64,000 nucleotides of DNA from Dehalococcoidia bacterium (lineage in GTDB: Bacteria > Chloroflexota > Dehalococcoidia > Bin125), in the NCBI GenBank assembly GCA_965242565.1, contig OZ251457.1:2904653-2968652 (forward strand), given 5' to 3'. Under the pieces are notes generated by a model, which did not search any database, was not told the DNA's origin, and saw only the letters and a list, made by a program, of their open reading frames with translations. Within the stretch, counting starts at the first letter, position 1. Each line of letters begins with the position of its first letter. The position numbers and the translations under genes were made by a program. Of the stretch, positions 44,473 through 63,047 are shown piece after piece.

Positions 44473-45240
44473 CTACCCGTTGACATCGCAGCCCAGAAAA
44501 ACCCGCCCGCGCCGTCGGCACGCCTCCAGCACCGAAAACGTGCCGGCCGCCGGGTCCACCACCAGGTCGCCCGGATTGGTCACCGCCTCGATCAGCGCCG
44601 CCTGTAGCTCCACCGGCTTCGGGTGGACTCCCCCCTGCTTCGGGACCCGCTCGGTCCACACATCCGGGATCGTGTGAACCTTCCAGACGCCCTTGGCCTT
44701 GCGGGGCGATTTCTGTAGGACCACAAGGTGCTCCGACTTGCGGCGCGAGCGATAGCCCATGCCGATCTTGTCCTTGTCCCACGTGATCATGTCCACGGTT
44801 TCCAGCGAGGTGCCGCTGAGCCAGTCCCGGAAGCCGGTACAGAGGTGAAATTTGTCCATCCAGAGGAAGAGGTGGCCGCTGGGGATCAGGATGCGATCCA
44901 GCTCGCCGATGAACTCCGCGATGGTGTCGTCATTCATCTGCGGCAGCCCGGCGCGACCCTGCCCTCGGTTCTCGCCCTCGTTGCCGTACGCCAGGTGATC
45001 GAGCACACCGCGGTATTGCGGGTCGAAGAACGCCGCCGCGACCGCGCTCTCCGGCAATTGCGCGAGCAAATCGCGCCCATCCATCTGCAGCCGCGTATTG
45101 GGCGCCAGCTCCGCCGGCAGCGCCAACGCCGGCTGCTCAAGCGCGCGCTCACTGGAGAAGACGGATGCGGAATTCGCCTCAGCGTCGTCGAACAGCGGAG
45201 CCGAAGCTTCGCCGAGCGCGACTGTTGAACGGCGTGCCAT
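44473..45240 (-). CDS. DNA methyltransferase (N4-cytosine or N6-adenine, beta-class: motif IV before motif I), apparently orphan
   Basis: Motif IV FFDPQYR is followed later by the SAM motif I VVDPAAGTFSV. No adjacent restriction endonuclease candidate is visible. Confidence 0.7.
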   Translation of the reverse strand: MARRSTVALGEASAPLFDDAEANSASVFSSERALEQPALALPAELAPNTRLQMDGRDLLAQLPESAVAAAFFDPQYRGVLDHLAYGNEGENRGQGRAGLPQMNDDTIAEFIGELDRILIPSGHLFLWMDKFHLCTGFRDWLSGTSLETVDMITWDKDKIGMGYRSRRKSEHLVVLQKSPRKAKGVWKVHTIPDVWTERVPKQGGVHPKPVELQAALIEAVTNPGDLVVDPAAGTFSVLEACRRRGRVFLGCDVNG

Positions 45241-51947: not shown

Positions 51948-52148
51948 CTAGACCGTCTCGAATTGCAGCGACGAGAGGTCGAGCCGGTCCGAGCGCTTCG
52001 AGAGGTGCAGAATCTCAACACCGACGACTTGCCGCGCCTCGTTGAAGTCGAGCACCACGCCCGACGAGACCTCCTCCGACTCCACGATGGCGGAGTCGTC
52101 AAGGCGCAGATAGAGCGCGTCTGCTTCCCGGTCCACCCGCAGTTTCAT
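51948..52148 (-). CDS. small DUF2283-like protein
   Basis: 66-aa ORF with the pattern ADALYLRL...EVSSGVVLDFNEARQVVGVEIL. Confidence 0.45.
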   Translation of the reverse strand: MKLRVDREADALYLRLDDSAIVESEEVSSGVVLDFNEARQVVGVEILHLSKRSDRLDLSSLQFETV

Positions 52149-53773: not shown

Positions 53774-54475
53774 GTGATCTCTCCCGCCGACCAACGCGCC
53801 CGCACCATCCAATCCATGTTCGGGCGGCTCGTGCCCCAATACGACCGCATGAACCGCGTGATGACGGCCGGTCTCGACGGACGCTGGCGGCGCCTCGCCG
53901 TGCGGGCCGCCAAGCCGCGCGGCGAGGCGGTGCTCGACCTCGGCGCGGGCACCGGCGACCTCTCGCGCGAGTTCCGCCGCGCCGGCGCGGCTCGCGTCGT
54001 CGGCGCGGACTTTTCCGCGCAGATGCTCCACCGCGCCCACCGCAAATTCGGCCCACAAACCGCCGACTGGCTCCAGGCCGACGCGCTGCGGCTGCCCTTT
54101 CCCGATGCCGCGTTCGACATCGCGGCCAGCGCTTTCGTTCTGCGCAACCTGGTCGACCTGCCGCGCGCCTTTGAGGAGATGCTGCGCGTCCTGCGCCCCG
54201 GCGGGCGGCTCGTCGCGCTCGACATCACCCACCCGCCCGACGACCTGCGCGGCCGCGTTCTGCGCCTCGGCTTCGAGCGGATCGTCACGCCCGCCGCCGG
54301 TCTGCTCAGCGGCGACCGCGACGCCTACCGCTATCTTCCCAACTCGCTTGCCGGCTACCCGACGGCGGATGACTTGGCCGAAATGCTGCGCGCCGCCGGC
54401 GCAGAGCAAGTCTCATACCAACGCCTCGCCGCCGGCGCCGTCGCCCTCCACACCGCCCACAAACCCTCTCGCTGA
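53774..54475 (+). CDS. ubiE: demethylmenaquinone / ubiquinone-menaquinone biosynthesis C-methyltransferase (UbiE/MenG family)
   Basis: SAM motif VLDLGAGTGD is present, and the sequence is UbiE-like N-terminal to it. Sits in the men cluster. Confidence 0.8.
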   Translation: MISPADQRARTIQSMFGRLVPQYDRMNRVMTAGLDGRWRRLAVRAAKPRGEAVLDLGAGTGDLSREFRRAGAARVVGADFSAQMLHRAHRKFGPQTADWLQADALRLPFPDAAFDIAASAFVLRNLVDLPRAFEEMLRVLRPGGRLVALDITHPPDDLRGRVLRLGFERIVTPAAGLLSGDRDAYRYLPNSLAGYPTADDLAEMLRAAGAEQVSYQRLAAGAVALHTAHKPSR

Positions 54476-54622
54476 CGAGCGATTCCTATCGCTCTCTGGA
54501 TAACGGCTTCAGTGAGTGCTTTGAGACAGCATGAGCGAGGAGGGCAGTCAGCGACAGAAGTGAGACGATTAGCTGCAATGGCAATGTGCGTCGCCATCCG
54601 ATGGATTGACAACGAAATCTCC

Positions 54623-57226
54623 TCAGGCGAGTTCTTTGTCAGAGTACCTTCGCACGCGGTTATGCCATTCCCGCAGCGTCTGAAGCGCTTCGTCGAGCTC
54701 CCTCGGATCGGGTGAACCATAGTTGGTGGTGACGATCTTGTCATGTCGCCGTGCCCAGATCGACACCTTGCTGTAGGAGGTTTGGAGTACCCGATTGTCC
54801 TTTTCCGAAACGTGTACGAGTAGGCGGAACATTTTTGGGTGGACTGCCATATCCGTCGGAGAAACGACTTTCTCAACGACAAGCTCGCGAACAGCTCGCT
54901 CCCAGGCTTCCGACAGTCTGCCGGCCCATTCCGCAGCTCGTTGCTCATACTCTTCCCCAGTGAGGCGGCCTCGAGCATTTTTGAGCTGAGCAAGGTCTTG
55001 TTCCAGTTGCCCTAGCCGTGTTTTCGTGTCCTTGGTTGGCCACGGGTGCCCATCTGAACATGCACCGGGAGTCACGCCACCTTTACGTTCCACAGTCCGT
55101 TTCGTGATCTCAACTCCGCGTTGGCCGGCTTCTAGAGCGAGAGCGCTAACGAAGGTGTGATCGTGCGTGAAGATGATCACTTGGCGGTCGATGGCGAAAT
55201 CCGCGAGTCGTGCAGCAACGCGAGCCCTGCGGTGCTGATCGAGCGATGACACGGGATCATCCAACACGATCGCCGAGTACGACCTGTCGAGAGTCGTGTC
55301 CGTGAAGAAGCCGGCCAACCCCAACGCAGTCTGTTCGCCTTCGCTGAGCACATTGTCCATCTGGTACGAGCGCTTGGCACCGTCAAGCGCGGGCTTGTTG
55401 GTGAGCTGTCCCTTCTGGCCGCCTGTGTCTTCGAGAATGACTCGCTCCAGGAGCAGGTTGTCCGCTTCTTTCGCGAAGCAACTCTGCACCTCGGGGGTGA
55501 CATACTCACGGGTGAGTCGTGTTGCCTCGGACGTGATGGCATTCGTGCGCGTTTGCCCTTTAGCCTTCTCGAGGCGTTTGCGTTCGGCCCGGCGAGCGAC
55601 TTCGCTCCGAATTGCCGCGCGTGCGCCGGCCATGAGCCGACTGTCTTGATTCTCCTTGATCCGGGTCTCGATGCCGCGAAGCTGCCGCTCATACGCGGTC
55701 TTATCGAGCTGCGCTGCCGATGCGCGCACGCGATCGGCTTCCGCGCGGAGTCCGTTGGCTTGAGAATCGCTCGGAACGGCATCCAACGCTTCCGCCAAAT
55801 TGCCACGTTCGATCGCGCGGACAACGTTCTGAAACGCTGTGATTTGTTCGCGGGATTGGAGAGCGAGCCCCTGATCGATCCTTTGGACGTGATCGAGAGC
55901 GACGGCCACATCGGTTGGTTCGATTGCCGCGGATCGCACTTGGGTTTCGGCAGTGTTCGCATCGCTCTCGGCGGCTTGCGCCTGTCGCTCTGTGCGATCT
56001 TGTACGGCTGCCTCGAAGCGGCGCAGGCGCGCCTGGGCCTCGTCAGATAGATCTTGATGGCAGAGCACGCACTTCGAGTCTGCGCCGAGGCGCGGGAACG
56101 TATCGCCCGGATAAGCGTCCGTTTCCGAGAAGCTGCGAGCAGCTTCCCAGAGCGCGCGCCACGTTTCGGAGCCGACCCCGGTTACTGGCTGGTCGCCTGA
56201 GGATTCTTGCGCGGCGATCGTGGCAGCTGCTCGCAGCTGCTCTGCTTTCACCTTCTTTTCGGCGAGCGCGGTGATCGCGTCGCGGCTGAGGTCTTTGTCG
56301 AGAGACGTCAGGTGATTCGCGAGTACGTCGAGGGCGCTCGCAAAATCCTCCAGGCGTTCGCGTTCGCGCGCAGGGCCCGAAGCTTGCAGGGTGTGAGCTT
56401 GCCGTTCTAGCGCCTCGATCTCAGCGTCAACATCGGCGGCAACCCGACAAGCGCGTGCTATCTCGTCGTTCGTCGTCGACGGCGAAAGCTTGCCCAGAAA
56501 GCGGGCTGCTTGGCCGTCTGGTGAAACGCTTGGCAGCGTTGTTGCTCTGTTCTCGTTTTCGCCGAGCAGCCGATCGAGCTCGGCCCTGACTCCGTCGCAT
56601 GCGCGACTGAGGCCGTCGAACAAGTTGAGCTCTGCTGGTCGGTACGTGACCTCTGACTCCTTCGTCAAGAACGCTTCGCCGCAGCTCTCGTCAAAGAAGC
56701 CGATCCGGCTTGCTGCTGGCGGGACATCTGCCCACTGACACCGGATGGCCTCTTCACCATGAAGTGAAATGCCGACCTCAGCTCGAGGCGAAGAATCTGT
56801 GCTGGTCGCGAAGATGTCCGGCAGGACCGGTTCGGTGACTCGAGCCCGTGAGATCTGCTTGATCAATCGGGCATACCCGGATTTGCCACTTCCGTTGTCT
56901 CCGTAGACGACCGTCAGGCCCGTCGGCGCGAATGTGAGCGTCTCGCCAGCTGCGAGCGCGTTCACGTTGACCGTCTGGGCTATCTCGACCAAGCCAACGG
57001 CACCGCTGGTCTCGCGCCCTGCGGCAGCGGCGAGCGTGAACGTAGCTTGTGGGTCATCGTCGCCCGCAGCGAGCCGTTCAGCGATTGCTCGATGATCAGC
57101 CGCGCCGAGGGTTTCACCCTGCGCGAGTCTGCTCAGGACGCGACGCTGCCATCCCGGGCGGCCTTCAGCCCATTTGACGAGGTCCGACGCGATCGAAGAC
57201 ATGTGGGCAGAGTACCACACCGACAC
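54623..57226 (-). CDS. Rad50/RloC-like ABC-type ATPase with a ~500-aa coiled-coil insertion and a mid-coil CxxC zinc-hook-like motif, plus a C-terminal ~200-aa domain of unknown function (possible nuclease)
   Basis: Walker A GDNGSGKSG (aa ~110). The ABC signature-like LSEGEQ, Walker B/D-loop AIVLDDPVSSLD and H-loop IIFTHD are all near aa 620-680. CVLCH sits at aa 386-389, midway between Walker A and the signature motif. The 3' end of the gene is markedly lower in GC (~52%). Confidence 0.65.
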   Translation of the reverse strand: MSVWYSAHMSSIASDLVKWAEGRPGWQRRVLSRLAQGETLGAADHRAIAERLAAGDDDPQATFTLAAAAGRETSGAVGLVEIAQTVNVNALAAGETLTFAPTGLTVVYGDNGSGKSGYARLIKQISRARVTEPVLPDIFATSTDSSPRAEVGISLHGEEAIRCQWADVPPAASRIGFFDESCGEAFLTKESEVTYRPAELNLFDGLSRACDGVRAELDRLLGENENRATTLPSVSPDGQAARFLGKLSPSTTNDEIARACRVAADVDAEIEALERQAHTLQASGPARERERLEDFASALDVLANHLTSLDKDLSRDAITALAEKKVKAEQLRAAATIAAQESSGDQPVTGVGSETWRALWEAARSFSETDAYPGDTFPRLGADSKCVLCHQDLSDEAQARLRRFEAAVQDRTERQAQAAESDANTAETQVRSAAIEPTDVAVALDHVQRIDQGLALQSREQITAFQNVVRAIERGNLAEALDAVPSDSQANGLRAEADRVRASAAQLDKTAYERQLRGIETRIKENQDSRLMAGARAAIRSEVARRAERKRLEKAKGQTRTNAITSEATRLTREYVTPEVQSCFAKEADNLLLERVILEDTGGQKGQLTNKPALDGAKRSYQMDNVLSEGEQTALGLAGFFTDTTLDRSYSAIVLDDPVSSLDQHRRARVAARLADFAIDRQVIIFTHDHTFVSALALEAGQRGVEITKRTVERKGGVTPGACSDGHPWPTKDTKTRLGQLEQDLAQLKNARGRLTGEEYEQRAAEWAGRLSEAWERAVRELVVEKVVSPTDMAVHPKMFRLLVHVSEKDNRVLQTSYSKVSIWARRHDKIVTTNYGSPDPRELDEALQTLREWHNRVRRYSDKELA

Positions 57227-57311
57227 CGGATCGGATCACCCAGCCATCAACGTTTCGAGACTGGCCAAGGCGAGGAGCGATGGGAGGGAACGCTTTGGGC
57301 TGGCCCATGGG

Positions 57312-60149
57312 TTAGAGGCGCCGGTTGGAGACGACGGGTTCGGAGGCGAGCAGGCGACGCAGCGGCTCCAGGTTGGGGAGGTCGAGGATCTCAGCGAGAC
57401 CGTCGTCGAGCTTCGCTCGGGCGGGGTCGTCGGCCATTTGGGGGAGGGGCAGGAACTCGACCTCGGCCATTTCGTTGAAGAGGGCGTGGAGGGCGTCGAG
57501 CTGGTCCTGCGTGAGTTGTCGGACGTCGAGGATCGGCATTTGGGCGAGGTCGGCTTTCTTCAGCTTTACCCATGGTCCTCGAGTTGTGTTCCGCGTGGCG
57601 AGCAGGGATAGCAGTCCCAAGCTGCTGTTGAGCCAGAGCGCCAACGGTCGTTCGCGTCCCGTATCACCGACATTGACCGGCCAGAACACATTCGACAGCA
57701 CCTGCCGCTCCGTGCAGATTGCGATGGTGCGGCAAGTGTTCAACCACAGGCGCTCGCCGATCAGGAGTTTGCCCGCCTTCGGCCAGAGCAGGTCGAGCGG
57801 CTTGAGCTTTCGTCGCGGTCTGGGCGTCGTCAAGGGCGAGAGGTAGTTGTCCGGTTCGGCGAGCAGCCTGGTGCGTTTGTCGGTATCGTGGCCGTCGATC
57901 ATCTCGTAGGCGGTGACGCTTTGCGTTCGCTCGAAGCCGTCCCACACATCGCGCACATCGGGCCCGATCTGCCCGAGTTCGGTCAGGGTGGTGAGCGGTA
58001 TCGAACCGACCTCTCTCGCACCGGGCATTCGCACGCTTCCGTCGCGCAGTACTCGCGACGCGATGCGTGTCACGTCCGCTCGCGCGAACTGCACGCCCAG
58101 CCACCGCTCGCCCAGGATCTGGTCCGACGGCATCAGCAGCACTTCGCCCATGTGCCGATCATCGACCGACAGGAGCGATGTACCGTCTGCGTCGATGCGC
58201 GCCGGAGCGATCGTCTCAACGGCTTGCGCGATCTTCTGGGCGTCGATGACGCCTCGGGGATTGCGCCAGAGGCTGACGAAGCGCGTCTCGTAGTCGGGCG
58301 GGTCGCCGTTTTCGCGGCGGCGGGTGGCGATCAGCAGGGCCTCAGAGAGATCGGTGCTGTCGGAGAAGTTCCAACGTTCTGGGTCGTGGGACGCGATCAC
58401 GGTGTCAATCGTGAAATCGCGCTCGATCAGGGAGCGCGTTTGTTGCCATGAGGGGCCGGTGCAGACCGTGAGCGGCAGCACGAGGGCGAGCCGGCCTTCG
58501 CCGGGGCGCAGTTTCGGCGCGGCGGCGGCGACGAACGCGGAGCCGAGGCCGGCGGTGACAGCGCCGTTGCGGGTCTTGAGTCGGCGTTTGAGCTCGGCCT
58601 GGAGTTTGCTTCGTTCCGGCTGGGGGAGGCTGCCGAAGAGCAGGTTGCCGCCGACGGAGCGGGTGAACGGAGGGTTCATGATCACGAGGTCGAGGTCGGG
58701 CAGTCTGACGGTGACGCCTTCGGCGGCGCCCTTGAGGCCCTCGCCGCTGACGCGCCCGACGTCCTGAGGGACGATGGCGAGATCGCCGCCGCCGCCGAGC
58801 GACATTTGCACGGGGGCTTCGCGGCTGCCGAGGAATTCGAGCGAGCCGAGCCGGATGTTGTCGCTCTCAACGCCGAGCGGCATCGTGTAGAGGTTCATTT
58901 TGTCGAATTGGATGTCGGGGTTGAGCAGGGCCAGGCTGGTGGCGGCGAAGTGGATGGCGGAGAGTTGCACATCGAAGCCGATCAGCGCCTGTTCGACAAG
59001 GTGTTTGTGCAGCGAGGGGATGTCGCGTCCGCCGGCGTCGGCATGGCGGCGTTGCGTTTCGGAGGCGACGGCCATCAGCAGCGTGCCGGTGCCGCAGGCA
59101 AGGTCGGCCACGTTGAGCGAGGCGGGGAATTCGTGATCGCTCCAGTCGACATCCTTGGGCCAGCCGTCGAAGACGAGGTGGGCGAGCATCGCGGCGGCGG
59201 GTACCGAGGTGTAGTAGGCGCCACTGAATTTGGCGTCGGAGAGGAGTGTGTGGAAGAGGCGGCCGGAGAGGTCGTGGCCTTCGAGGTGGCGGGTTTTGTG
59301 GACCGCTTCAAGCAGCGGACGCAGGACGGGCTGTTGGTGTTCGGGATCGCCGTAGGCGAGCACGCGCAGGATTTCTCTGGCGACCTCGAAGACGGGCACG
59401 TAGTCGATGTCGGTGCAGATCTCCTCCCAAGCCGCTTGCAAGGGTTTGGCGCCCTCGGCGGCGACTTCCTCGACGGAGGGGATGTCGTCGCGCACGAGCG
59501 CGAGCCGGCGGTGGAACGCAAGCGCGTTGAACAGCACCAGGCAGCCGATTCGCTTGCCCGCTTCGCGTTCCTTTTCGTCGGCCGTTTCGGCGACGACTTC
59601 GGCGACGAGTCGGGCGACGCGGGCGTGGGTGTTGAGGCCGCGGACGGCCTCGGTGAGCGCGTAGCCGACTTCGAGCGTGGCGGCGTAGACGCGGTCGGTA
59701 CCCTCGATCTCGAGCGGGAGCAGGCGCAGCTGGGCGGCCAACGCCTGCACCTGGCCTTTGCGCAGGATCGGATCGTCGTAGATCTCGGCGCGGGAGCTGT
59801 GCAGGTACCACTCGAGATCGCTGAGCCAGCTGAGCACGTCGCCGACGTCGTCTTCGACTTTGAGGTAGTCGGGGTAGAGCACGCCGAGGCGAGCGATGGC
59901 GTCGGGGAAGTCGTCCACGCGCTCGGCGAGTTGGCGGTCCAGCTCGGTGCGGCTGCCCTCCCACTTGCACTCGATCAGGATCAGCTCGCCGGAGGGCAGC
60001 TCGAAGCGGAGGTCGGGTGCGTCGCCGTCGCTGCGGCGCTCGGCGCGGGCGGGGATGCCGCGCGCTCTGAGTAGCTCGCCGAGCAGCACGTTGACGGCTT
60101 CTTCGCGGACGGTTTCGCCGCTGTGGGCGCGTTTGGAATGGGATGGCAT
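57312..60149 (-). CDS. Type IIG (MmeI-like) restriction-modification enzyme: N-terminal PD-(D/E)xK nuclease motif, gamma-class N6-adenine MTase, C-terminal target-recognition region
   Basis: D46...E60-C-K62 in DLRFELPSGELILIECKWEG. MTase motif I DLACGTGTLL precedes motif IV VIMNPPFT (NPPF). Length is 945 aa. Confidence 0.7.
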   Translation of the reverse strand: MPSHSKRAHSGETVREEAVNVLLGELLRARGIPARAERRSDGDAPDLRFELPSGELILIECKWEGSRTELDRQLAERVDDFPDAIARLGVLYPDYLKVEDDVGDVLSWLSDLEWYLHSSRAEIYDDPILRKGQVQALAAQLRLLPLEIEGTDRVYAATLEVGYALTEAVRGLNTHARVARLVAEVVAETADEKEREAGKRIGCLVLFNALAFHRRLALVRDDIPSVEEVAAEGAKPLQAAWEEICTDIDYVPVFEVAREILRVLAYGDPEHQQPVLRPLLEAVHKTRHLEGHDLSGRLFHTLLSDAKFSGAYYTSVPAAAMLAHLVFDGWPKDVDWSDHEFPASLNVADLACGTGTLLMAVASETQRRHADAGGRDIPSLHKHLVEQALIGFDVQLSAIHFAATSLALLNPDIQFDKMNLYTMPLGVESDNIRLGSLEFLGSREAPVQMSLGGGGDLAIVPQDVGRVSGEGLKGAAEGVTVRLPDLDLVIMNPPFTRSVGGNLLFGSLPQPERSKLQAELKRRLKTRNGAVTAGLGSAFVAAAAPKLRPGEGRLALVLPLTVCTGPSWQQTRSLIERDFTIDTVIASHDPERWNFSDSTDLSEALLIATRRRENGDPPDYETRFVSLWRNPRGVIDAQKIAQAVETIAPARIDADGTSLLSVDDRHMGEVLLMPSDQILGERWLGVQFARADVTRIASRVLRDGSVRMPGAREVGSIPLTTLTELGQIGPDVRDVWDGFERTQSVTAYEMIDGHDTDKRTRLLAEPDNYLSPLTTPRPRRKLKPLDLLWPKAGKLLIGERLWLNTCRTIAICTERQVLSNVFWPVNVGDTGRERPLALWLNSSLGLLSLLATRNTTRGPWVKLKKADLAQMPILDVRQLTQDQLDALHALFNEMAEVEFLPLPQMADDPARAKLDDGLAEILDLPNLEPLRRLLASEPVVSNRRL

Positions 60150-60881: not shown

Positions 60882-61994
60882 ATGCCTACGCCCGCCCGCG
60901 TCGTGTTTCTGCCCCAGGAAGACGCCCCGCTCGCCGTCGAACACGTCGAACTGCCCGACCCCGGGCCGCTTCAGGTCGTTGTGCGCCAGTTCGCCAGCGG
61001 TATCTGCCACTCGCAGCTGCACCAGATGCACAACCCGCGCCCCAGCGACCAGGTGCTCGGGCACGAGGCGACGGGCGAGGTGATCGCCGTGGGCTCCGAG
61101 GTGACCAACGTCGCCGTGGGCGACATCGTGTTCGTGACCTGGGTGCCGCGCGATCCGTCGGTCGCCGCCCGCGCGGTGGAGGAGATCAGCATCGAGCGCC
61201 CCAACGGACGCCGCGCCACCACGCGCAATGTGTTCACCTGGGCCGACCACACGATCGCCGACGAGAAGTACATCGTGAAGGTGCCGCAGGACACGCGGCG
61301 CGATGTGACCTCGATCATCGGCTGCGCGGTGCTGACCGGTTCGGGGGCGGTCTACAACACAGCGGCGGTCCGCGAGGGCGACTCGGTCGCGATCTTCGGC
61401 GTCGGCGGCGTCGGCCTCTCCGCCGTGGTCGCGGCTTCCGTGGTCAAGGCGGATCCGATCATCGCCGTCGACCTCGACAACGAGAAGCTGGAGTTCGCCA
61501 AGCGGTTCGGCGCGACGCACGGGGTGAACGCGGGCGGCGGCGATGCGATCGAGCAGGTCAAGGCGCTCACCGCGGGCGCGGAGGGCGTCACCACCAGCTT
61601 CGGCGAGCCCGTCTCCGGCGTCGACTTCGCCTTCGACTGCATCGGGCGCGAGGTCACGATGGGCCAAATTCTCCGCGCGGTGCGCCCCGGTGTGCTGGGC
61701 GACGAGGGCGGCGGCACCGCGGTGCTGGTCGGCGTGCCGCAGTCCGGTCTCCGGTTCAGCGAGGATGACATGCGGGGGCTGCTGATCAATGAGAAGCGCT
61801 ACATCGGCTCGATCGGCGGTTCGTGTCGGCCGGATCGGGATTTCCCGATGTTTCTGGCGTGGTCCGACGATGGGGCGCTGGATCTGGACGCGATGGTGAC
61901 GGAGCGCTTCACGATCGGGCAGATCAACGAGGCGACGACGGCGCTGGAGCACGGCGAGATCTTCGGCCGGGCGATCATGGAGTTTGACGACTAG
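60882..61994 (+). CDS. zinc-dependent alcohol dehydrogenase (MDR family)
   Basis: GHEATGEV, the Rossmann AIFGVGGVGLS, and ADH-like overall sequence. Confidence 0.8.
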   Translation: MPTPARVVFLPQEDAPLAVEHVELPDPGPLQVVVRQFASGICHSQLHQMHNPRPSDQVLGHEATGEVIAVGSEVTNVAVGDIVFVTWVPRDPSVAARAVEEISIERPNGRRATTRNVFTWADHTIADEKYIVKVPQDTRRDVTSIIGCAVLTGSGAVYNTAAVREGDSVAIFGVGGVGLSAVVAASVVKADPIIAVDLDNEKLEFAKRFGATHGVNAGGGDAIEQVKALTAGAEGVTTSFGEPVSGVDFAFDCIGREVTMGQILRAVRPGVLGDEGGGTAVLVGVPQSGLRFSEDDMRGLLINEKRYIGSIGGSCRPDRDFPMFLAWSDDGALDLDAMVTERFTIGQINEATTALEHGEIFGRAIMEFDD

Positions 61995-62449
61995 CCCTCA
62001 AGGCGGCTCAGCTCTGCGGCGACTTCGTCGGCGGTGACGGTGCGGGTGATCGCGCCGACGGCGTGGTTGAGGGTGATCTGTCGGATTTGCGAGTCCCGAG
62101 CGATGACGCGCTCGATTTCACGCTCGTGTTTGAGGATGAGTTGGAGTTGTTCGTCGGCGTCTCCAGAGCCGAGCTGTTCCTGGCGAAAGCGGAGTTGAAT
62201 GATCCGGAGGCCGTTTCGCATCGCGCGGAGAGCGGGCAGGCGCGCGCCGCGCTTAGCGTAGCGGTCTTTCGTGACGATCGCGTCGTAGTCGTGCGCCACT
62301 GCAAACGCCAGCACGACCGCGTCGGGCTGATTGTCGAGTCTGAGCGGCTTGGCGTGATCGGCCTGCCAGCCGCGCTCGCGCAGCGGGGCCGCCACCGCTT
62401 CAGCGATGTTCTCATCCAGCAGCAGGCGTATGGACCTGGGCAGCGTCAT
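61991..62449 (-). CDS. DUF5615-family (PIN-like) putative toxin
   Basis: N-terminal IRLLLDENI pattern. Paired with and overlapping the upstream DUF433 gene. Duplicate of 63086..63541. Confidence 0.65.
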   Translation of the reverse strand: MTLPRSIRLLLDENIAEAVAAPLRERGWQADHAKPLRLDNQPDAVVLAFAVAHDYDAIVTKDRYAKRGARLPALRAMRNGLRIIQLRFRQEQLGSGDADEQLQLILKHEREIERVIARDSQIRQITLNHAVGAITRTVTADEVAAELSRLEG

Positions 62450-63047
62450 ACAGCGCCTGTTCAAATTCGAGAATGCGGCGCGCCTGATAGACGGTCAGCC
62501 CGTATTCGTCGACCATCTGCTCGGTGTGCGACGCGGTGGGGTAGGTGTTCGCAAGCATCGCCGTGCGCAGCCGGCGGGCGCGGGCGGTCGGCTCGCCTGC
62601 GCAGTAGTTTGGGCGCATTTCCACGGCGTCGGCGAAGCGGAAGAGGCGTCCGAGGGGGCCTTCGTGGCGGCGTTCGCTCCAGAAGCGTTGGAGGTCGATC
62701 TCGGTGGGCAGCGCCGCCTCGAGCGCGCGCTGGGGGAGGGTTGCGGCCCACTGGGGGCAGGCGTCGTCGAGGCGGGCGAGCGCGTCGGGGAGGTGGGCCT
62801 CGGCGAGGCCGAGTTCGAGCAGCTTGGCGGCGGCGAGGACGCGGTGGTGGTCGTTCCAGCTGTAGTACCAGGGCGGGTCGCCGAACTCCTCGCGATCCGG
62901 GTCGTCGTTGATCACCGAGGCAGGCAGCAAACCTTCCGCGCGCCAACGCTCGAGCTGCTCGGGATCCAACCCCGAAAGCCCGGCGACGATGGCCGGCGAG
63001 ATCGCGCCTTCGTCGCGCAGCGGATCGGACTCTGCGTGACAGCTCAT
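62412..63047 (-). CDS. DUF433-domain putative antitoxin with a long N-terminal extension
   Basis: C-terminal DUF433-like HTEQMVDEYGLTVYQARRILEF. Overlaps the downstream DUF5615 gene. Near-identical nucleotide copy at 63800..64000. Confidence 0.6.
   Translation of the reverse strand: MSCHAESDPLRDEGAISPAIVAGLSGLDPEQLERWRAEGLLPASVINDDPDREEFGDPPWYYSWNDHHRVLAAAKLLELGLAEAHLPDALARLDDACPQWAATLPQRALEAALPTEIDLQRFWSERRHEGPLGRLFRFADAVEMRPNYCAGEPTARARRLRTAMLANTYPTASHTEQMVDEYGLTVYQARRILEFEQALYDAAQVHTPAAG

Follow-up and report, generated by a model that had tools for sequence, protein, structure and literature searches.

What does a pair of cysteines do in the middle of an ATPase that resembles both DNA-repair and phage-defence proteins? 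The question is raised by an ATP-binding cassette (ABC) ATPase gene on the minus strand of a 64,000-nucleotide window (the whole stretch of DNA that was analysed) from contig OZ251457.1 of a Dehalococcoidia bacterium. A preliminary description of the window had noted a CxxC motif halfway along the encoded protein and likened it to the zinc hook of Rad50, SbcC and RloC. After homology searches, alignments and structure prediction, it is considered probable that the CxxC is a zinc hook of the Rad50/SbcC/RloC type, placed in a stand-alone defence ABC ATPase of 859-867 aa that is linked to restriction-modification (R-M) systems. This reading is carried by the invariance of both cysteines, by their position in the predicted fold, and by a sequence register shared with known hooks.

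A CxxC motif at the centre of a split ATPase head

The gene and the parts of its product that bear on the motif are the following.

54623..57226, minus strand: ABC ATPase gene of the AAA_13 / PADLOC PDC-S06 family, 867 aa from a GTG (open reading frame list, translation)
56879..56902, minus strand: Walker A, GDNGSGKS, aa 109-116 (translation, conservation)
55457..56635, minus strand: predicted helical, coiled-coil-like insert that splits the ATPase head, aa 198-590 (AlphaFold2, Foldseek, mean-field direct coupling analysis)
56015..56173, minus strand: conserved "hook module", aa 352-404 (conservation, AlphaFold2)
56051..56077, minus strand: SKCVLCHQD, aa 384-392, with C386 at 56069-56071 and C389 at 56060-56062
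55163..55348, minus strand: C-terminal half of the ATPase head, with the signature LSEGE (aa 627-631), the Walker B/D-loop AIVLDDPVSSLD (aa 652-663) and the H-loop histidine H688

Gene calls of close homologues begin at MSSIASDL, which corresponds to M9 (ATG at 57202), and therefore an 859-aa product starting at this ATG is probable, with the cysteines as C378 and C381. Residue numbers in this text follow the 867-aa frame.

The motif is present in the open reading frame, and the span first reported for it, 56058-56077, was essentially correct, as it runs from S384 to C389 and takes in part of H390. Translation and conservation place Walker A, the signature and Walker B (AIVLDD, aa 652-657) where they had been located before. 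The position of the motif midway between these elements was also borne out: K115 and D657 are equidistant from residue 386, the AlphaFold2 helical insert is centred on residue 394, and C386 and C389 lie 5-8 residues off the centre of this insert of about 390 aa. Among shuffled versions of the protein, 6% contain a CxxC anywhere and 0.15% have one no more than 10 aa from the middle of the insert, and thus from one sequence alone a departure from chance is only suggestive.

Conservation of the two cysteines

Conservation among homologues had been proposed as a test of the motif, and both cysteines turned out to be invariant in every set that was aligned. This applies to 121/121 database homologues with 40-98% identity and to 80/80 sequences, made up of the query and 79 homologues from species-representative genomes and spanning at least 10 phyla (Actinomycetota, Chloroflexota, Acidobacteriota, Myxococcota, Planctomycetota, Gemmatimonadota, Patescibacteria, Pseudomonadota and others). 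It also applies to a pooled set of 326 sequences (326/326), which additionally includes cluster representatives at 50% identity and plasmid homologues with 22-31% identity. The latter, from Pseudomonas/Klebsiella, Staphylococcus and Rhizobium, each carry a single CVLCQQ, CIFCHQ or CVLCHQ, and the family consensus around the motif reads [RK]-C-V-L-C-[HQ]-Q-x-L. Ten columns of the protein are fully invariant, namely W356, C386, C389, G630, D656, D657, P658, S661, H688 and G721, and apart from the cysteines most of them belong to ATPase motifs; judged by the alignment, both cysteines appear as constrained as the catalytic ATPase residues of Walker B, the D-loop and the H-loop. The CxxC is regarded as a real, functional signal because of this invariance and not because of the shuffle statistics. 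A chance motif without function, for which the frequency of CxxC in shuffles might be cited, is refuted by the invariance in all 326 homologues across many phyla and down to 22% identity, and its probability is negligible.

The cysteines do not stand alone. The insert has 14 columns with a conservation of 95% or more; 11 of them lie within aa 352-404, and the conserved positions of this segment are G352, W356, W360, A363, F377-P378, C386, L388, C389, Q391, L393, R400 and F404. The conserved unit of the arm formed by the insert therefore appears, from the alignments, to be a module of about 50 residues rather than a bare CxxC. It conserves much more than hooks of the Rad50 type do, and the apex may thus offer a further surface for binding.

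In the alignments of 121, 80 and 326 sequences, no further conserved cysteine or histidine was found in the arm. C260 drops to 24/80 in the wide genome set, H305 is kept in no more than roughly 80% of the homologues (100/121; 63/80), and position 390 is either histidine or glutamine. As the arm offers no other conserved Cys or His, an intramolecular four-ligand site is unlikely, and a site shared by two chains would be economical.

As a separate observation, insertions and deletions in the loop preceding the CxxC (aa 379-381) co-vary across homologues with those at aa 468-488. Such a pattern would arise if the two loops lay side by side at the apex, but it may also simply reflect subfamily phylogeny.

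Comparison with the hooks of Rad50 and RloC

Zinc hooks are established for Rad50/SbcC, and a zinc hook has been proposed or is mutationally supported for RloC and LmuB. In Rad50, two protomers share zinc through the hook (Hopfner 2002, as summarised in PMC3458546). Mutations in the RloC hook deregulate its nuclease, and RloC is activated by DNA and ATP (PMC2610378, PMC3458546). LmuB, RloC and DndD have been grouped as defence proteins of the CxxC-SMC type (PMC12663957).

For the comparison with Rad50, the solved Pyrococcus furiosus hook (1L8D) was retrieved by its own sequence and the motifs were then compared. The motif region of the ABC protein reads KCVLCHQDLSDEAQARL and is in register with the 1L8D hook, and a longer stretch, RLGADSKCVLCHQDLSDEAQARLR, has K-C-x-x-C-x-x-[DE]-L-[ST]-D-E in common with the P. 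furiosus hook (1L8D, 6ZFF). A phmmer search of aa 340-440 against the PDB returned no match. In the supplement of the RloC paper (PMC2610378), which was available as text from optical character recognition (OCR) and is to be read with caution, the hook of Geobacillus kaustophilus RloC is HKGLECAFCGNKIDVSRWELDRHF, and its relatives follow C-x-F-C-x3-[LIF]...[HY]-F. The resulting RloC register, C-x-F-C-x3-[LI]-x10-F, coincides with the ABC protein at C389+4 (L393) and C389+15 (F404). When residues 121-360 of the G. kaustophilus protein were rebuilt from the same OCR text and used as an approximate query, nothing was found in the protein database searched.

Profile alignments single out the same point in the sequence. 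The Pfam AAA_13 alignment begins at the motif, at aa 383, and three further PDC-S06 profiles (PDLC04886, 04894, 04897) begin at aa 382-383. The proposed correspondence with the Rad50/SbcC/RloC hook position thus holds in that the motif is central, invariant, located in a loop of the AlphaFold2 model, and in register with 1L8D and the RloC hooks.

Predicted structure of the head and arm

A full-length AlphaFold2 model was built from an alignment of 108 sequences, with a mean predicted local distance difference test (pLDDT) of 87. Its order is an N-terminal three-helix domain, the split ABC head with its insert, a beta-hairpin and a C-terminal all-alpha domain (aa 734-866). The two outer domains are located as follows.

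57002..57202, minus strand: N-terminal three-helix domain, aa 9-75 (AlphaFold2 helices 2-21, 25-35, 42-53)
54626..55045, minus strand: C-terminal all-alpha domain, putative effector, aa 728-867 (conservation, AlphaFold2)

In the N-terminal domain, W19, W26 and G37 are nearly invariant in the alignment, and a Pfam search with this domain gave no match. The insert is modelled as helices 198-226, 266-312, 315-342, 354-371, 395-431, 438-473, 490-534, 536-557 and 562-590. The CxxC lies in the loop 372-394 (pLDDT about 82), between helices 354-371 and 395-431; this is the sole long non-helical stretch at the centre of the insert and contains a small beta-bridge (385/392).

Searched with Foldseek against the PDB, the whole model matched SMC and Rad50 heads with coiled coil (E down to 5e-8), and against the viral predicted structures of BFVD it matched Rad50/SbcC-type proteins of phages and giant viruses over 700-850 columns (E down to 3e-12). 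When the PDB was searched by sequence, the only matches were Rad50 and SMC heads. Judged by its predicted fold, the protein is an SMC/Rad50-like ABC ATPase, its head split by a long helical insert, and the helical, SMC-like character of the insert is accepted because AlphaFold2 and Foldseek support it. The earlier assignment to an SMC-like rather than a compact AAA architecture is upheld by these results, together with matches to Pfam AAA_13 and SMC_N.

Residue covariation was analysed by mean-field direct coupling analysis (mfDCA) on a gap-imputed alignment, which is noisy with an effective sequence number of about 260; without imputation, gap artefacts dominate. A very strong top pair (299-512) and an antiparallel ladder (308/504) indicate, within this noise, that the arm is antiparallel. 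Further ladders at 365/408, 329/424 and 371/459 are likewise noisy and do not fix the topology.

The C-terminal domain

In the C-terminal domain, E776 (54899-54901) and H828 (54743-54745) are each conserved in 323/326 sequences and lie 51 residues apart. R777, S822, W824, R827 and D829 are highly conserved as well, and the plasmid homologues keep [TW/TV]-E-[RK] ... H-D. At position 772 (54896..54913 on the minus strand corresponds to aa 772-777), 79/326 relatives have arginine, giving R-x3-E-x51-H, and three quarters have serine; only the arginine version reproduces the Arg-X3-Glu-X36-52-His spacing of RloC. R777, next to the nearly invariant E776, may substitute for the arginine of the triad.

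Modelled alone, the domain consists of four long helices and one short helix (pLDDT 90.7). About 15 of its 50 best Foldseek matches are HEPN domains (2hsb, 1wol, 1ufb, 7ae6/7ae8, 4nqf, 3o10, 8xeh, 7bxo, 1o3u), and generic four-helix bundles are mixed among the matches.

Family membership and named relatives

The ABC protein matches Pfam AAA_13 (PF13166) with 42.7 bits against a cut-off of 36 (aa 383-696 to profile positions 254-577 of 713). It matches the PADLOC PDC-S06 profile PDLC04891 over its full length (E=1.2e-168, aa 12-860 to 3-855 of 858) and PDLC04893 with E=1e-150, and three plasmid homologues match PDLC04891 as well. A profile search of 1.84 billion representatives yielded 3,284 clusters (50% identity) at E <= 1e-30, and a scan of genomes yielded 470 loci; no homologue was found in the phage genome collection searched. 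Members of the PDC-S06 profile, all with CxxC, were additionally seen on clinical plasmids (285 plasmid records), with carriers in P. aeruginosa/Klebsiella and in S. aureus/S. epidermidis, beside recombinases and resistance genes such as tmexCD and cadAC.

RloC is reportedly an anticodon nuclease that excises the wobble nucleotide (Davidov & Kaufmann 2008, Klaiman et al. 2012). It shares with the ABC protein a single polypeptide of about 800 aa, an ABC head interrupted by a helical insert that has a single CxxC at its centre, the same hook register (C-x-hydrophobic-C, a hydrophobic residue at +4 and Phe at +15) and a match to Pfam AAA_13. Both have a C-terminal all-alpha domain with conserved Glu and His about 50 residues apart, and genes of both are occasionally found inside type I/III R-M loci and otherwise solo. 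In contrast to RloC, the ABC family has an extra N-terminal three-helix domain and a longer pre-CxxC loop carrying F-P. Its C-terminal domain shows no detectable similarity to RloC via the AAA_13 and PrrC profiles, and the arginine position of the RloC triad is Ser772 in the ABC protein, with R777 beside the Glu instead. By analogy, the protein would work like RloC, within the broader AAA_13 / CxxC-SMC-like defence clade. Strict membership of RloC is not established, because the C-terminal domain is without detectable similarity and the triad arginine is missing.

With Rad50, SbcC and T4 gp46 (1L8D, 6ZFF), the ABC protein has in common the central CxxC in a coiled-coil insert of the ABC head and the match of the whole-protein fold. 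As the best sequence and fold matches in the PDB are Rad50 and SMC and a CxxC hook is present, a housekeeping SbcC/Rad50 orthologue acting in DNA repair might be assumed. This is very improbable. No SbcD/Mre11-like partner is encoded in the window or by recurrent neighbours, and no phosphoesterase cluster was seen among the recurrent neighbours in 79 loci. The arm, at only about 390 aa, is much shorter, conserved N- and C-terminal domains are added, and the conserved hook module is larger. The gene is placed in an island of low GC content, is carried on plasmids and is linked to R-M systems, a context of defence rather than repair, and the protein matches a defence-candidate profile over its full length.

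PrrC, the T4-activated tRNA-Lys anticodon nuclease of the type Ic prr locus, resembles the ABC family in combining an ABC ATPase with a C-terminal effector (putative in the ABC family), in having its gene within an hsdM/hsdS/hsdR operon, and in the concept of an R-M-linked second line of defence. PrrC is about 400 aa long and has no coiled-coil or hook insert, whereas the insert of the ABC protein comprises 390 aa. Identity with PrrC was rejected, since this insert is present and the PrrC profile covers only aa 651-701.

LmuB of Lamassu is likewise a CxxC-type SMC-like defence ATPase, and the match to the PADLOC LmuB profile, over aa 263-697, takes in the hook (E=3e-10). Lamassu needs a separate LmuA effector and LmuC, whereas in the ABC protein a candidate effector is fused. 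LmuB was rejected as the identity of the protein, as no LmuA or LmuC genes flank it and the profile match is partial. The MADS system (mad2/mad3) was rejected too: the NCBIfam MAD2 score is 22 bits where 720 would be required, and PADLOC mad3 covers the ATPase part only (E=7.5e-12).

Association with restriction-modification systems

At 20 of 79 genome loci, the ABC gene lies co-directionally inside or beside R-M gene sets, of type I at 16 loci and of type III at 4. Typically the genes run hsdM-ABC-hsdS-hsdR and are separated by up to 34 bp or overlap by up to 10 bp, and the identities of the R-M genes at the 20 loci were confirmed by Pfam. The homologues are otherwise often solo, and some are on plasmids. 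In the original rloC survey, 8/72 rloC genes were R-M-linked (PMC2610378). The linkage seen here corresponds, by analogy, to the "restriction-linked orf" behaviour of prrC and rloC.

In the window itself, the neighbours of the ABC gene are a methyltransferase fusion and UbiE. The former is encoded immediately upstream and in the same direction.

57312..60149, minus strand: 945-aa nuclease-methyltransferase gene (translation, weak profile matches)

The 945-aa protein has a PD-(D/E)xK-like N-terminus (D...ECK), a central motif of gamma-class N6-adenine methyltransferases (NPPF) and a long C-terminal region, with weak methyltransferase matches to Pfam N6_Mtase, NCBIfam MAD2 and PADLOC MTase_II and IIG. 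From its sequence, it looks like a type IIG-like R-M enzyme in a single polypeptide. It is a member of a large protein family (about 941 aa, 60-64% identity, 2,715 matches) that has no Pfam assignment and is mostly annotated as "hypothetical"; by its looks, this is a type IIG-like R-M family that has not been described so far.

The ABC protein and the 945-aa nuclease-methyltransferase might be thought to form an obligate two-gene system, in which the former would be an SMC-like motor or clamp working for a restriction enzyme. Its hook would then bridge the DNA to be restricted, in the manner of Rad50-Mre11 or Lamassu, and would gate no intrinsic toxin. The two genes are co-directional and 85 bp apart, with no predicted terminator between them. 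The pair is syntenic, between housekeeping genes, in relatives with 75-98% identity of the ABC protein, and both proteins have weak MADS matches (mad3 for the ATPase, MAD2 for the methyltransferase). Against this, among the 79 loci that carry an ABC homologue, a single one has a methylase homologue nearby, and a weak one at that; methylase family genes are solo in other genomes, and the ABC gene occurs alone, with unrelated type I/III systems, or on plasmids. In two relatives (L001:7022-9888 and L090:3043-5876), the methylase gene is frameshifted, near aa 40 and aa 230, while the ABC gene is intact; these frameshifts could be decay of the R-M partner or assembly errors. The MADS matches are far under the family cut-offs. 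A conserved link between the ABC gene and the methylase was rejected because of the single locus among 79 and the solo occurrence of the methylase elsewhere, and an obligate two-gene system is considered improbable.

The ABC gene has 57-64% GC, compared with 68-75% in the flanking housekeeping genes (window 54400..57800), which include menB-like, TetR, UbiE, NpmA-like and ADH genes. The lower GC content is consistent with horizontal acquisition. The gene behaves as a mobile defence module that is often inserted in R-M operons.

Some further genes of the window were observed around this island.

61991..62464, minus strand: 157-aa DUF5615/PIN_10-like protein
62412..63047, minus strand: 211-aa open reading frame without a Pfam match, adjoining the former
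51948..52148, minus strand: 66-aa DUF2283 protein between the UbiA and menB-like genes
44473..45240, minus strand: stand-alone 255-aa DNA methyltransferase, N6_N4_Mtase (PF01555)

A relative's copy of the 211-aa frame has a faint DUF433 match, and the 157-aa and 211-aa frames are probably a toxin-antitoxin-like pair just beyond the island. In one relative (L090), a DUF4258 gene lies beside the DUF2283 gene, and the DUF2283 locus may be a small toxin-antitoxin-like module.

Weighing of the zinc-hook interpretation

Several results weigh against the proposed hook and its coupling to a nuclease effector. The first group of them concerns the arm. Heptad periodicity, assessed by Fourier and a/d-register tests, was significant only in helices 266-312 and 438-473; the helices that flank the motif lack significant heptads (354-371, p=0.15; 395-431, p=0.34). 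These tests are crude and do not separate a coiled coil from an amphipathic helix. For the coiled coil that had been claimed around the CxxC, the picture is mixed: the helical, SMC-like insert agrees with it, and the heptad signal in the flanking helices is weak. An apical position of the CxxC on an antiparallel coiled coil is suggested by the predicted topology. The arm is also asymmetric, with about 122 helical residues on the N-terminal side of the motif and about 176 on the C-terminal side in the AlphaFold2 count, a difference that would fit an apical helical module better than a simple hairpin. The mfDCA ladders hint at an apical bundle, and the CxxC could sit on the side of this bundle and not at its tip.

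These observations lend some weight to an alternative in which the CxxC is essential but is not a zinc hook between subunits. It might instead be an intramolecular metal knuckle with non-Cys ligands, for example Q391 or acidic side chains, a redox dithiol/disulfide switch, or a structural staple of an apical bundle that binds a partner or nucleic acid. The conserved 50-aa module (W356, W360, F377-P378, Q391, R400, F404), which is much more than a bare CxxC, the beta-bridge 385/392, and the helix-length asymmetry together with the ladders 329/424, 371/459 and 365/408 all fit such an explanation. Moreover, relatives of LmuB have 0, 1 or 2 CxxC motifs, so that the dimerisation mode varies within the clade (PMC12663957). 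On the other side, the motif shares its register with the solved Rad50 hook and with RloC, and a third or fourth conserved Cys or His is absent from the arm. Glutamine is a poor zinc ligand, which speaks against the knuckle, and we know of no precedent for a cytoplasmic disulfide switch in this protein clade. A role other than an inter-subunit hook is thus judged rather unlikely, and a zinc hook remains the preferred interpretation.

A second group of results concerns the effector. When aa 728-867 were searched against Pfam, as a single sequence and with 74 members, and as a profile against the PDB, only noise and no match was obtained. The ABC protein of the window has Ser772, not Arg, at the position of the RloC triad. 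Foldseek searches with the domain gave no E below 0.1 (all E >=0.15, template modelling scores 0.35-0.5). The canonical HEPN motif Rx4-6H, which precedes the last helix in that superfamily, was not found in the domain, where the sequence around the histidine is S-I-W-A-R-R-H828-D-K; the ABC protein has no Arg 5-7 residues before H828, and position 823 is Arg in 52/121 relatives. Taken together with the HEPN domains among the structural matches, a HEPN-like nuclease effector is about an even proposition, with a slight lean in its favour.

The remaining results concern the family context. The PADLOC PrrC profile aligns only from Walker B to the H-loop (E=5e-6). PDC-S06 is a computational, single-gene guilt-by-association candidate for phage defence that comprises many profiles. 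In the literature, passing mentions of PDC-S06 were found but no functional or experimental work, and no hook, function or mechanism is described for it in the papers that could be searched. The preliminary description had also seen in the protein the translation-disabling paradigm of RloC. The R-M linkage at 20/79 loci and the nuclease-methyltransferase fusion that precedes the gene agree with the pattern of RloC and PrrC, whereas the absence of a family match for the C-terminal domain, the sub-threshold HEPN-like fold and Ser772 do not, and the paradigm is upheld in part only.

A possible mode of action

If the CxxC is a zinc hook, the helical arm of about 390 aa would run out from the head and back, and its turning region would be the module 352-404, presenting C386 and C389 on a short loop. 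Because no other conserved Cys or His is available in the arm, the zinc site would need two protomers, and a tetrahedral site would be made of two cysteines from each. The shared zinc would link the two arms within a dimer, or else hold two dimers together. If the analogy with RloC holds, the head would sense ATP and nucleic acid, and its DNA-dependent ATP turnover would, together with the state of the hook, gate the C-terminal domain. In the weakest step of this scheme, a HEPN-like nuclease effector would use E776, R777 and H828. The module would probably be a back-up or guard, triggered by a failure or bypass of restriction or by the appearance of foreign DNA ends.

A wider interpretation is offered tentatively and is held with less confidence than the hook or the effector. 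The proteins might constitute a distinct and very large sister family of RloC, in which a 50-residue hook module couples an SMC-like, DNA-sensing head to an undescribed, non-canonical HEPN-like effector (Glu-Arg...His-Asp). In this role the protein would be a portable guard, able to join restriction systems of type I, of type III and of the type IIG-like kind. The family comprises more than 3,000 clusters at 50% identity, from many phyla and including clinical plasmids.

Significance

The zinc-hook motif itself is not new and is a known feature, here in a family that is catalogued but uncharacterised. The value of the locus lies in this family, as PDC-S06 is a widespread and, by the literature searched, uncharacterised defence candidate that occurs on plasmids of Klebsiella, Pseudomonas and Staphylococcus. 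The analysis provides PDC-S06 with a testable anatomy consisting of two invariant cysteines, a conserved, presumably apical module and a putative catalytic pair, E776 and H828, and the R-M linkage suggests how the ABC protein is deployed. Should the hook gate the effector in the way described for RloC, the family would lend itself well to studying how an SMC-like sensor converts the state of DNA or of restriction into abortive infection.

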